Source: Escherichia coli
GTDB taxonomy: Bacteria; Pseudomonadota; Gammaproteobacteria; Enterobacterales; Enterobacteriaceae
Direction: 5' to 3' (one strand)
Assembly (NCBI RefSeq): GCF_003334765.1
Contig: NZ_QOWT01000031.1
Length of the DNA stretch: 47,728 bases
Both the position numbers and the translations under genes were made by a program. The notes below the pieces were generated by a model that made no database searches, had not been told where the DNA came from, and saw only the letters and a list, made by a program, of their open reading frames with translations. Shown in pieces: positions 118-3,320 of this stretch (positions within the stretch are counted from its first letter, which is position 1; each line of letters opens with the position of its first letter).

Positions 118-411
118 TCACCCACGATTAACCAACAGCCAGACCAGCAGACACGCCACCACCGGCACAGCAAAATCTATCAGGCTTGCCACATCCCAAA
201 CACGCGGATCAAAACCGCCCCACCACGGCATGTTAATCCGCTTGCCATGCCCGAACATTTCAATCCAGCGATATTCTGCCTGGGTGTGTTCACGCGCAAT
301 GAAGAACGTACAACCGGCTATCGCCCCGTAAACCCAGTTTCCGGCAAAAAGACCAATCATTACCTGCGCAGCCACAGCACAAAGCGCATGAAGAAAAGGT
401 GTTATATCCAT
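118..411 (-). CDS. Small hydrophobic inner-membrane protein (97 aa), last gene of the prophage minus-strand operon
   Basis: ORF with two to three hydrophobic helices (AVAAQVMIGLFAGNWVYGAIAG, FAVPVVACLLVWLLV); 10-bp gap to upstream gene. Confidence 0.4.
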   Translation of the reverse strand: MDITPFLHALCAVAAQVMIGLFAGNWVYGAIAGCTFFIAREHTQAEYRWIEMFGHGKRINMPWWGGFDPRVWDVASLIDFAVPVVACLLVWLLVNRG

Positions 412-421
412 TACTCCTCCT

Positions 422-1126
422 TTATCCGATATCGCTTTGGGAAGTTGATAACAACTTCAATTCTGACTCAAGTTCATCAACTCTTTCAGTCAGTTTCTGG
501 ATATGGTGAATCAGTGGAACAACCAGACGTTCGTACATTACACCTTCGGCAACAAGACCATTGCTGGAAATAGCTTCAGGAGCATCATTCTCGTTGGCTG
601 GTCGCCAGTGTACAAACTGAGGGGCAATTTCTCCTACTTCCTCGGCAATTAATCCGTAGAATCCCCAGTCACGCCTGTCATTTTCACATTGCGACCTGTA
701 CCATACAGGGCGCATCCTGAAAATGAGATCGGCGTGCTCTGAATCTATCGTCTCTACTGAATGTTTATAGCGAATAGACGATGTTGACCGCAGTACAGAC
801 GAAATTGCAGGGTCAGGATTAAGATAAAGGTTTGCCGCCGCTGTAGTCGTGCCCAAATTCCATAAATAAAACGCTTCACGACCAGTCAGCGGGTAAAAAT
901 CTCCACCATAATTACCGCTTTCCAGAGCATTCACTTCCAGTTTGTTTTTCAGCTTATTATCAACTTCAGTTTTTGTGTATCTGGTGCTGATATCCTGCTG
1001 TGCACTGGCCATATCAGTCTGAAGCGTTGATACTTTTCCGTTAATAGAGGAAATATCTTCCTTTGCTTTACTAACATCTCCCTTTAGCGTGGTGATGTCT
1101 CCCGGAATTACTGTCGATGTAGCCAT
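422..1126 (-). CDS. Tail-fibre-like protein: coiled-coil N-terminus plus C-terminal intramolecular-chaperone (peptidase S74-like) domain
   Basis: 234-aa ORF; heptad-like N-terminus, C-terminal segment (RMRPVWYRSQ...GFYGLIAEEVGEIAPQF) typical of self-cleaving tail-fibre chaperone domains; too short for a full fibre. Confidence 0.5.
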   Translation of the reverse strand: MATSTVIPGDITTLKGDVSKAKEDISSINGKVSTLQTDMASAQQDISTRYTKTEVDNKLKNKLEVNALESGNYGGDFYPLTGREAFYLWNLGTTTAAANLYLNPDPAISSVLRSTSSIRYKHSVETIDSEHADLIFRMRPVWYRSQCENDRRDWGFYGLIAEEVGEIAPQFVHWRPANENDAPEAISSNGLVAEGVMYERLVVPLIHHIQKLTERVDELESELKLLSTSQSDIG

Positions 1127-1135
1127 TTTTCTTCC

Positions 1136-1417
1136 TCACATCCAGCCACGAAGTTGATGCTCAACAGCAACCACGTATTCATCGAATATTGACGGTGTTT
1201 TCACATCATTAATGATGCGCACGTTTACAAAATATCCGTCTTCCTTAACACATACCGGTTCGCCATCTTCAGTCAGCTCTCCGGTTTCTTTGTACACGTT
1301 ACCTATCACATCAATAAGAATATCATCCTGCATCGACTCGTCATTATAATAGCCAATACTTCCCATAAAAGCCGAAAAGTCGGCCCTGTCGGCAAATTTG
1401 AGTGTTAAATCTTTCAT
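1136..1417 (-). CDS. Hypothetical acidic phage protein (93 aa)
   Basis: ORF whose start overlaps the upstream stop by 4 nt (ATGA); no recognisable motif. Confidence 0.35.
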   Translation of the reverse strand: MKDLTLKFADRADFSAFMGSIGYYNDESMQDDILIDVIGNVYKETGELTEDGEPVCVKEDGYFVNVRIINDVKTPSIFDEYVVAVEHQLRGWM

Positions 1418-2754
1418 TTAATACTCTCCCCCATTTGCGCATCAGTTAATTCTTTATGCCATATTCTGAAATTCCTGATGTGTCCAAACAAATGCCTCGT
1501 TCCGGCAGTTGTCTGCCCTCCTATTCTTATTGCCGTTGATTTTATAGCACCACCCCATGAAGTACTGACTTTTGATGAAATGTTACCATTCAGCGACGCT
1601 GCTAAGCCGCCATCTTTGTCTATTTTAACTCCATATATTCCAGTGTTTACAACTTCATTGTTACCAGTTCCTCTTGACGGGGAACCAACACTAACATATG
1701 CCGATCCAGGAAGAACTGTTGATGTCGGCCCTCGGAATGCAAATATAAAAGACTCTTCAGCGAATGATGATGTTGCGTTCAGGTCAAAAATTCTTGGTGC
1801 TCCGTTTGGCACAATATCCCAATTCTTATTAACTTCAATAAGAACACTGATAGGTTGTTTATAAATATTGTTTCTTGCGGGAATAGTTACCATATCACTT
1901 GCACGGGTCGCCGCCGTCGTTCCTGATATAATAAAAGATGATACACAAGGCCCATTTTCTACTTGTGGGGTGGCCAGATAAATATAGTCACCAGATACGG
2001 TTGCCCCGCCCTGCTTAGGAGAATACTGTATCTGAGAACCTATTTTTAACTCCCCATCAATTGCCTGAATTGTTGCCTCTGCAAAAATCCATCCGGTAGC
2101 TTCGTCCTTTCTGACTCTCGCTGTAATCCTTGAGGCAGCGCCGCCTGTCATATTAGTTTCAAGCGTTTGTGTATCAATATACGCATCACCAAGAAAAGTT
2201 GTTGCGCTACCGTCATATTTATCAAACCGGATACGCAACCTTACCTGCAGTTCTGTTTTAAAACGACATGAGGTTGTCACGTATTTATTATCGCCTGAGA
2301 CATCAACTGACTTTGTTGCAGCAATTGATGCCATATTAATGGCTGAGGTTTGCCCAATCAGAGAATCGTTACAGACAAACTTTCCATAGGTAAAACCAAA
2401 ACTATCCGTCCCAGTTTCGGGCACATCCATATTTGACGATCGCCCCCAACTGGCAGGGCTTTCCGAATTGAGCATGTAGTTTGTTCTTTGCCCCTCAATA
2501 AGCAGGCCATCACGTTCAAATCGTGGCTCGTCAATGGCAGCCTCTGTCAGCACACCAGATTTGTTAATATAGGTTGCTTTCGATGCACGTTTAAACTTAA
2601 CAATCTTGTCGCCAGGCATCGTTATTTCATCGTCACCAATAACAATTTTTTTATATGATGGCGAAAAGCCCGTAATCATATCCAGCGAATCGTTAAACGG
2701 TACAGGAAGCGCAATCAGTTGCGAGCGACGGTAGTGTGTTGTTAAACTGTTCAT
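1414..2754 (-). CDS. LamG-like (concanavalin-type jelly-roll) domain protein, phage tail or receptor-binding-like
   Basis: 446-aa ORF; C-terminal LamG_3-type signature (HIRNFRIWHKELTDAQM); GGAG Shine-Dalgarno about 10 nt upstream; ATG overlaps stop of upstream gene. Confidence 0.5.
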   Translation of the reverse strand: MNSLTTHYRRSQLIALPVPFNDSLDMITGFSPSYKKIVIGDDEITMPGDKIVKFKRASKATYINKSGVLTEAAIDEPRFERDGLLIEGQRTNYMLNSESPASWGRSSNMDVPETGTDSFGFTYGKFVCNDSLIGQTSAINMASIAATKSVDVSGDNKYVTTSCRFKTELQVRLRIRFDKYDGSATTFLGDAYIDTQTLETNMTGGAASRITARVRKDEATGWIFAEATIQAIDGELKIGSQIQYSPKQGGATVSGDYIYLATPQVENGPCVSSFIISGTTAATRASDMVTIPARNNIYKQPISVLIEVNKNWDIVPNGAPRIFDLNATSSFAEESFIFAFRGPTSTVLPGSAYVSVGSPSRGTGNNEVVNTGIYGVKIDKDGGLAASLNGNISSKVSTSWGGAIKSTAIRIGGQTTAGTRHLFGHIRNFRIWHKELTDAQMGESIK

Positions 2755-3320
2755 GCGTTAGTTTCTCCACAACCAGAAGCAATCGACGCCACGACGCCCG
2801 GAGCTGCACACTCGCGGGCGTCATTACTTTCTGAAATGCAAAAAATTTTGTAGACAAGTGCTGCATGCTCCTGCAGCTTCGAAATTGAGAGATACAGCTC
2901 GTCGTTAATTGCTGTCTTCTCATGCGGTTCCACTACACCGTCTTCGATTGCTGAACGAATCTGTTTTGAATAACTGCCGATCTGTTCAATGACTTCCAGC
3001 AGACGCTGGTTAATATCGGCGTTGTCCACATCCTCGACGTCAGGAAGAGACACAAAGACGCCATTTGCAGACTGCGCCACAGCATCAGCAATGAAATGAG
3101 TGCCACCAGCACGCTGTAAAACCATTGCCCATCCCAGCGGGAAAATCTGATCGCCATCTGCACGAAGGCGGTTGAATAAAGCGTTTTCTGTTACATCGAG
3201 CCAGTCAGCCGCTTCAGCGTAACCACCCGGCAACGCCGCGATAGTTTTTCTGACAGCTTTCACGTACCACTCAGGCTGTTTTTCTATTTTCCAGTGATGC
3301 TTACCCACGATTAGCCTCAT
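2751..3320 (-). CDS. Phage protein, possibly CII/CP76-like lysogeny regulator (189 aa)
   Basis: ORF 31 bp downstream of the Cro-like gene on the same strand; family assignment from recalled resemblance only. Confidence 0.35.
   Translation of the reverse strand: MRLIVGKHHWKIEKQPEWYVKAVRKTIAALPGGYAEAADWLDVTENALFNRLRADGDQIFPLGWAMVLQRAGGTHFIADAVAQSANGVFVSLPDVEDVDNADINQRLLEVIEQIGSYSKQIRSAIEDGVVEPHEKTAINDELYLSISKLQEHAALVYKIFCISESNDARECAAPGVVASIASGCGETNA

Follow-up and report, generated by a model that had tools for sequence, protein, structure and literature searches.

The stretch of DNA analysed here (hereafter, the window) comprises 47,728 nt of Escherichia coli sequence (RefSeq assembly GCF_003334765.1, contig NZ_QOWT01000031.1), and the element in question is an array of five minus-strand open reading frames (ORFs), encoding proteins of 189, 446, 93, 234 and 97 amino acids (aa), that lies downstream of a cro gene close to the start of the window (Table 1). 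A first-pass annotation made from the sequence alone had described this array as a tightly coupled five-gene operon and had put forward two explanations for it: a large deletion joining the pR region of a phage to its distal tail-fibre region, or a module of tail-fibre-like domains, of unknown function, that is expressed in the lysogen. ORF scanning and inspection of the raw sequence recover every structural element of that description, including the five ORFs with their lengths, the ATGA stop/start overlaps at 2751-2754 (between the 189- and 446-aa ORFs) and 1414-1417 (between the 446- and 93-aa ORFs), and a GGAG ribosome-binding site (RBS) 10 nt upstream of the ATG of the 446-aa ORF. Gaps of 9 and 10 nt precede the starts of the 234- and 97-aa genes, with the Shine-Dalgarno sequences GAGGAAG and AGGAGG, respectively. 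Further along the window a tRNA-Arg(TCT) gene, argU, adjoins an integrase gene and is followed by host DNA, so that window positions 1 to ~9600 constitute a prophage integrated at argU.

Table 1. Features of the argU prophage remnant, in window coordinates.
Positions	Strand	Feature	Basis or remark
1-98	minus	C-terminal remnant of a tfa (tail-fibre-assembly) pseudogene, at the prophage's right end	cut off by the start of the window
118-411	minus	97-aa ORF	ORF scan
422-1126	minus	234-aa ORF	ORF scan
1136-1417	minus	93-aa ORF	ORF scan
1414-2754	minus	446-aa ORF	ORF scan
1414-2697	minus	Stf-derived part of the 446-aa ORF, receptor-binding distal half (residues ~369-795) of the 795-aa Stf (side tail fibre)	0 mismatches to FG92-1 stf
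2698-2702	minus	deletion junction, 5-bp microhomology TACCG (coding strand)	three- and four-way alignments with PhiR29_1, TO6 and FG92-1
2703-2754	minus	ymfM-derived 5′ end of the 446-aa ORF, codons 1 to ~18	identical to PhiR29_1 and TO6 ymfM, MNSLTTHYRRSQLIALPVP...
2751-3320	minus	189-aa ORF; ymfL, intact, 189 aa (185 aa from an alternative GTG start), CII-like early regulator	ORF scan
3352-3552	minus	cro/ymfT, 66 aa	PHROG phrog_35 transcriptional repressor, E=3e-15
3553-3642		divergent cI-cro control region	operator-like palindromes (sequence and repeat scan)
3643-4317	plus	ymfK/cI, LexA-like S24-peptidase repressor, 224 aa	Pfam PF00717
4532-9482		intact left arm: hypothetical gene, yfdP, yfdQ, yfdR, phage protein, yfdT, helix-turn-helix protein, intD	TO6 comparison
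5946-6770		yfdQ	
8319-9482		integrase intD	
9498-9574	minus	tRNA-Arg (anticodon TCT, argU), attachment site, left prophage boundary	ARAGORN

Taken as a whole, positions 100-3900 of the window are matched by no phage and by no complete E. coli genome, and the matches that do exist stop at 2698-2741. To the right of this break the window resembles the cI-cro-ymfL-ymfM early region of PhiR29_1, SfIV and SfV; to its left it resembles the distal part of the J-lom-stf tail-fibre operon, as carried by the lambdoid phages and prophages HannyBb, Tritos, 2G7b and FG92-1. Alignments locate the switch within a few nucleotides, with the ymfL-ymfM match to PhiR29_1 and to the genome of TO6 (NZ_LS992166.1) extending down to 2698 and the match to FG92-1 stf running from 2702 downward. 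The intervening TACCG falls in codons 18-19 of ymfM and in codons 367-368 of stf. The coding-strand sequences are ...CTT CCT GTA CCG GGT... for ymfM, ...TGG ATA CCG TTT AAC... for stf and ...CTT CCT GTA CCG TTT AAC... for the window, and the 40-mer across the junction is TCCAGCGAATCGTTAAACGGTACAGGAAGCGCAATCAGTT. The probability of a microhomology of at least 5 bp at a random junction is ~0.005.

The same division is seen at the protein level, where alignment resolves the 446-aa ORF into two in-frame parts, YmfM residues 1-19 and Stf residues 368-795 (of 795). Residues 1-22 match the 112-position, YmfM-like PHROG family phrog_1170 and residues 1-19 match phrog_20047, while residues 18-445 correspond to positions 367-793 of the 793 in phrog_1419 ('tail protein', E=1e-202). 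An exhaustive search returned 1,929 homologues of the 446-aa protein, and the full-length matches listed start at query residue 15-18 and occupy the C-terminal part of proteins of ~420 to 1,250 aa; the distal module is hence homologous to tail-fibre C-termini by both phrog_1419 and the homologues. YmfM itself is far from complete, 93 of its 112 residues having been lost. On both sides of this single breakpoint the window is collinear with intact relatives, the left (early) prophage arm with TO6 and PhiR29_1 and the right arm with FG92-1 and, over 1-500, with TO6. These comparisons bear out the first of the two proposed explanations, and we consider it very likely that the supposed five-gene operon marks the place where a defective lambdoid prophage at E. 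coli argU lost an internal segment of ~35 kb in one deletion. The breakpoint falls within the conserved PDVWxPLNDSL joint at which the interchangeable distal fibre module begins, no more than a few codons in; this was noticed post hoc, and the closeness may be coincidental.

A breakpoint within the 189-aa ORF, which the first-pass annotation had envisaged, was rejected: that ORF is not chimeric and encodes a full-length YmfL identical to that of the relatives, the break falling instead 19 codons into the next gene, so that the 446-aa ORF is the chimera. Nor does the 189-aa protein stand in the place of cII, O and P as had been supposed. It scores 169.8 bits against the NCBIfam YmfL equivalog NF041471 (curated cutoff 90), falls in PHROG phrog_101 (CII-like transcriptional activator) and matches Pfam PF06892 (Phage_CP76), and over window 2698-2900, where ymfL has its 3′ part, there is 100% identity with the ymfL annotated in e14 of K-12; a search of the PDB returned no relative. 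YmfL is the native gene at the cII position of this phage group, not a substitute for cII/O/P.

The couplings within the array have the same origin as its genes. The ymfL/ymfM ATGA overlap is also present in PhiR29_1 and TO6, and the overlap between stf and the 93-aa gene in FG92-1 and TO6, and the RBS and upstream overlap of the 446-aa ORF are ymfM's own. Because each overlap was inherited unchanged from its parent operon, the tight coupling does not speak for a designed operon, and an evolved, translationally coupled operon was rejected as an interpretation. The ORFs and overlaps of the supposed operon are thus real, and what does not survive is the operon as an evolved unit, its couplings stemming from two parent operons.

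Intact relatives supply the missing segment. The host flanks of TO6 are 100% identical to those of the window, and a complete prophage occupies the same argU site. Its early region contains, in order, intD, yfdT/R/Q/P, ymfK, ymfT, ymfL and an intact ymfM, a 112-aa SfiC homologue at L007 40860-41198 (minus strand) that is intact yet without RefSeq annotation. Beyond ymfM come replication genes, Q, lysis, terminase, head and tail genes, J, lom, a 798-aa Stf and the genes for the 93-, 234- and 97-aa proteins; the prophage ends in a tfa remnant, beyond which lie ompT/envY/nfrA. The segment absent from the window measures ~41 kb in TO6 coordinates, or ~31 kb once a tandem duplication of ~10 kb, possibly peculiar to TO6, is subtracted; the duplication spans the lysis-to-capsid region, and one of its copies has frameshifts. 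In phage PhiR63_1, ymfL occupies 6881-7432 and stf homology begins at 42465, some 35 kb away. The two halves joined in the window are therefore ~31-41 kb apart in intact relatives, with replication, lysis, head and tail genes between them. Replication, Q, lysis, terminase, capsid and tail ORFs were all absent from window 1-9600, and all of them lie between the same landmarks in TO6 and PhiR63_1, which amounts to a loss of the genes for lytic growth between the two arms.

The likeness to TO6 extends to the integration site, the integrase, the yfd genes, ymfK/ymfT/ymfL, the start of ymfM and the right end, identical over window 1-500, with the distal stf cassette of TO6 being another allele. PhiR63_1, which like PhiR29_1 is an induced ECOR phage, combines the immunity module with the stf-93-fibre-97 module. 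What sets TO6, PhiR29_1 and PhiR63_1 apart from the window is that they have kept the ~31-41 kb between ymfM and stf codon 368. The stf-93-234-97 genes sit in the ordinary J-lom-stf operons of thousands of E. coli prophages. The second explanation offered by the first-pass annotation, a lysogen-expressed module, consequently finds no support, the same genes occurring in ordinary tail-fibre operons and the Stf-derived DNA being 100% identical there.

Prophage repeats often cause misjoins, and a chimeric contig that misjoins two prophage fragments was weighed as a source of the junction. The exact chimera with its flanks is present in independently assembled Logan contigs from ERR271232 (three samples) and SRR3951470, which are 100% identical to window 49-5172. 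These contigs end at a repeat boundary ~70 bp beyond the 97-aa gene, as an argument for artefact would have it, but the independent assemblies of four sequencing runs are identical across the junction itself, and the join is a clean, in-frame microhomology join rather than a repeat collapse. Because contigs from four runs agree, the junction is real and not an assembly artefact, and we regard a misassembly as scarcely conceivable. The junction is also rare. None of the 5,426 complete E. coli genomes queried with a 3.8-kb sequence and a 401-bp junction sequence contains a record spanning it, and in a collection of 15 billion proteins the exact 446-aa protein is known only from those Logan contigs, its 90% cluster being represented by a 795-aa Stf.

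Divergence from the parental sequences is minimal. Leaving aside an IS1 found only in TO6, the left arm (2698-9700, ~7 kb) differs from the TO6 argU prophage at 4 positions, window 1-500 shows 0 mismatches to the right end of that prophage, and window 459-2702 shows 0 mismatches to the stf-93-234 genes of FG92-1. Given these near-zero counts in both arms, the deletion is very recent. Since no substitutions have accumulated after the fusion, the ORFs are still intact, and their intactness is uninformative on selection. The locus represents ordinary, very recent prophage decay, and its architecture calls for no new category.

The right arm, by contrast, is of mixed parentage. All mismatches to FG92-1, 24 in number, fall within window 133-458, while the stf region of the TO6 argU prophage is only ~94% identical to the window over 459-1461 and 67-82% identical, in patches, over 1400-2702. 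Window 1-1461 aligns without gaps to TO6 L008 9127-10587, where 9105-9224 is annotated as 'tail fiber assembly protein, incomplete'; the same incomplete annotation is carried by the genome ETEC6333. This pattern implies a crossover within 459-500, at the 3′ end of the 234-aa gene, and so a recent homologous exchange of the stf-93-234 cassette.

The FG92-1 prophage that bears the identical cassette lies near thrS, which raises an alternative in which the tail-fibre arm derives from a second lambdoid prophage (FG92-1 thrS-like) and the two were brought together by a large chromosomal deletion or inversion. The identity of 459-2702 with the thrS prophage and its divergence from the TO6 argU stf region are what this rearrangement would predict. 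The outermost positions 1-500, however, which take in the tfa remnant, the 97-aa gene and the last part of the 234-aa gene, match the TO6 argU prophage at its right end with 100% identity, precisely where FG92-1 has its 24 mismatches, and the arm can be read as the right end of an argU prophage with a recombined FG92-1-type stf cassette, in keeping with the usual mosaicism of tail fibres. A 5-bp microhomology event would moreover be likelier over ~35 kb than over megabases. We therefore hold a rearrangement between prophages to be highly improbable. Because both ends of the remnant are of TO6 type, the sequence argues for a deletion internal to a single prophage whose stf cassette had been swapped earlier by homologous recombination.

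The 446-aa protein had been called LamG-like, a description that Pfam does not sustain, Laminin_G_3 (PF13385) giving a non-significant match (E=0.11) over residues 384-440 only. At the level of the fold the description does hold. The AlphaFold2 model, built with 55 homologues, has a predicted local distance difference test (pLDDT) score of 93.5 and a predicted template modelling (pTM) score of 0.90, with the YmfM-derived residues 1-10 at pLDDT 59, and Foldseek matches it to CBM40, pentraxin, neurexin LNS and laminin-G domains and to baseplate and tail-fibre chains of Pseudomonas phage Pa193/E217 (E 7e-7 to 1e-3). The model supports a Stf-derived part made of two concanavalin A (ConA)-like beta-sandwich domains. 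Residues 85-285 also match the NCBIfam GTA_spike_fiber domain NF048003 (51.7 bits against a cutoff of 36), and PDB entry 6tb9, the head spike fibre Rcc01080 of the Rhodobacter capsulatus gene transfer agent (RcGTA), is matched by phmmer at residues ~54-294 of the chimera (E=1.2e-5); the homology with Rcc01080 is at domain level only, the domain here being part of a tail fibre. The N-terminal anchoring domain PF08400, which spans residues 1-131 of FG92-1 Stf (E=3.9e-68), was not detected by Pfam in the 446-aa ORF, and the chimera also lacks the Ala/Ser/Thr-rich repeat segment of Stf, so that it is not a complete side tail fibre.

The description of the 234-aa protein as coiled-coil and S74-like has proved accurate. 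The protein matches Pfam PF13884 (E=2.2e-5) at residues 116-172, covering model positions 1-57 of 58, and has at residue 116 an SSIRYK motif that we take to be the S74 cleavage site. Its PDB matches are the L-shaped tail fibre of phage T5 (8hqz, E=9.6e-7) and the coiled coil of the P22 gp26 needle, it belongs to PHROG tail-fibre families, and RefSeq names it 'tail fiber domain-containing protein'. On these matches it is a short tail fibre with an N-terminal coiled coil and a C-terminal S74 intramolecular-chaperone domain.

The remaining two proteins fall in PHROG families of unknown function, phrog_1361 for the 93-aa protein (E=3.2e-45) and phrog_1443 for the 97-aa protein (E=1.5e-57), and neither has a match in Pfam, NCBIfam or the PDB. 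The DNA of the 93-aa gene is identical to that of FG92-1. Its gene is always found between stf, with the ATGA overlap, and the S74 fibre gene, and its product may serve a branched fibre as adaptor or assembly factor. The 97-aa gene, identical in DNA to that of the TO6 argU prophage, is the last gene of the tail-fibre operon; its reading as a membrane protein agrees with hydrophobic stretches at ~5-39 and 74-95, hydropathy being its sole support. More than 560 'hypothetical' proteins of this family occur in Escherichia, Salmonella, Enterobacter, Aeromonas and Comamonas. The Comamonas homologue follows a 2,520-aa GpJ-like gene and that of Aeromonas rivipollensis stands alone among housekeeping genes, and the gene context of these distant homologues gave no function.

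A single event accounts for the arrangement. The parent prophage had the order argU-intD-yfdT/R/Q/P-ymfK(cI)-ymfT(cro)-ymfL-ymfM-O...Q-lysis-terminase-head-tail-J-lom-stf-93aa-234aa-97aa-tfa′, and one illegitimate recombination at TACCG excised the ~35 kb from ymfM codon 19 to stf codon 368, with the simultaneous loss of replication, antitermination, lysis, head and tail genes. The reading frame was preserved by chance, leaving 18-19 YmfM residues on the distal receptor-binding half of Stf to make up the 446 aa, and the 93-, 234- and 97-aa genes are the normal downstream genes of a tail-fibre operon whose late promoter, along with Q, was deleted. Because the late promoter and Q are gone, only read-through from pR would be left to transcribe the tail-fibre genes; YmfK would keep pR silent in the lysogen and release it once the SOS response triggers the repressor to cleave itself. 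A chimeric protein, if produced, would find no tail to join, and this reading implies no function for the array.

Promoter predictions accord with this reading. Promoter-like sites number 9, against 7.9 ± 3.2 in shuffled sequences, and none except pR lies upstream of the array; the consensus scan missed pR, for which a weak TTGAAG-16-TAATAT candidate was identified by eye only. The array does not have the promoter and terminator of its own that would mark a moron or accessory module, and in intact relatives its genes belong to the late tail operon.

Several observations nonetheless weigh against simple decay. Essentially the whole conserved distal module has been kept in the chimera, the fusion is in frame and retains the native RBS and the translational coupling, all four downstream ORFs are intact, and the chimera is modelled with high confidence, so that a stable chimeric protein could be made. 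In addition, the right attachment site and host flank lie beyond the window, which starts 117 bp past the 97-aa gene and so does not cover the remnant in full; the Logan contigs end earlier still. The in-frame fusion and the intact ORFs can be taken to favour a domesticated module, in which a lectin-like YmfM(1-19)-Stf(368-795) protein, the S74 fibre and the 97-aa protein would be made from pR, through SOS induction or leakage, to the benefit of the host, for instance because a surface receptor would be masked or phages dependent on that receptor kept out. The ymfM RBS and ATGA coupling preserved by the in-frame fusion, the integrity of every ORF, the retention of a whole distal module confidently folded as two ConA-like domains and the presence of the junction in four sequencing runs all speak for it. 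Yet there have been zero substitutions since the fusion in the Stf part, the 93-aa gene and most of the 234-aa gene, and recency alone explains intactness; in-frame joining is a 1-in-3 outcome; and no N-terminal hydrophobic stretch is apparent by eye in MNSLTTHYRRSQLIALPVP (no predictor was run), so that the chimera would probably be cytoplasmic and away from any receptor. The junction's absence from 5,426 complete genomes, the lack of an excess of internal promoters and the fact that identical genes elsewhere are ordinary virion genes point the same way, and we judge domestication to be very unlikely. A nascent form of it, in which an accidental, SOS-controlled receptor-binding module with ymfM's translation signals would be kept because it alters the surface or interferes with superinfecting phages that use the same receptor, would rest on the in-frame fusion and the retained distal module and is likewise very unlikely. 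We thus retain a recent deletion internal to the argU prophage as the explanation of the array.

The integrase gene adjoins argU as it does in TO6, where the same tRNA gene stands next to intD and fimZ. Counterparts of ymfK are annotated as cI or LexA family in PhiR29_1, TO6 and ETEC6333, and those of cro/ymfT as Cro or YmfT in PhiR29_2, SfIV and TO6. In the control region between the two divergent genes, positions 3608-3626 form a perfect 19-bp palindrome, TTGTACCGTTAAGGTACAA, and a 14-nt inverted repeat, with arms at 3549-3562 and 3572-3585, overlaps the RBS of cro; both are probably pR/pRM operators. Beyond the prophage, window 9400-21000 is 100% identical to several E. coli chromosomes, and the remainder is an ordinary fimZ-sfm-folD-cysS-purEK-all-mnmH-rhsD region. 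Its final part, 45000-47728, is low in guanine-plus-cytosine content (35-40%) and holds, following the TO6 annotation, the rhsD variable C-terminal tip, a ybbC immunity-like gene and an orphan Rhs fragment.

The remnant belongs with the cryptic prophages of K-12. DLP12 of K-12 occupies the same argU site with intD, and differs in having kept its lysis genes. The K-12 chromosome carries nine cryptic prophages in all (reviewed in PMC3105296). Among them e14 resembles the remnant in its ymfK-ymfT-ymfL-ymfM early region and in having decayed while its genes for immunity and tail fibres stayed in place; it differs in lying at icd, in having a full ymfM (bioRxiv 10.1101/2020.11.19.390815), here cut after 19 codons, and in its invertible P2-type fibre genes. 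The parental 795-aa Stf resembles lambda Stf in its PF08400 domain and in its position after J and lom, and departs from it in having a distal ConA-like pair and a separate S74-chaperone fibre instead of a Tfa-assisted tip. A parallel case is an independent remnant in ETEC6333 (NZ_CP122600.1; L001 5883-11752). Its immunity region is 95.5% identical across cro-cI and has likewise been joined by deletion to pieces of tail and tail-fibre genes, after which come the same three distal genes (93, 234 and 97 aa) and the tfa remnant. In ETEC6333, however, cro abuts a minor-tail-L fragment, an IS3 splits the stf fragment and the integration site is tRNA-Thr/proA.

For annotation, the 446-aa ORF is best recorded as a ymfM′-′stf fusion pseudogene, not as a new LamG protein, and the locus as a ~9.6-kb defective prophage at argU, with little import beyond annotation. 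YmfM is SfiC, an SOS-inducible inhibitor of FtsZ-ring formation (bioRxiv 10.1101/2020.11.19.390815), and the loss of YmfM/SfiC together with all lytic functions, while the repressor is kept, is what a purging of toxic prophage genes would be expected to leave; through its cI gene the remnant probably still confers immunity. Defective prophages supply sequence to infecting lambdoid phages by recombination (PMC3945230), and the retained stf-93-234-97 cassette may therefore serve as a reservoir of tail-fibre DNA for incoming lambdoid phages.

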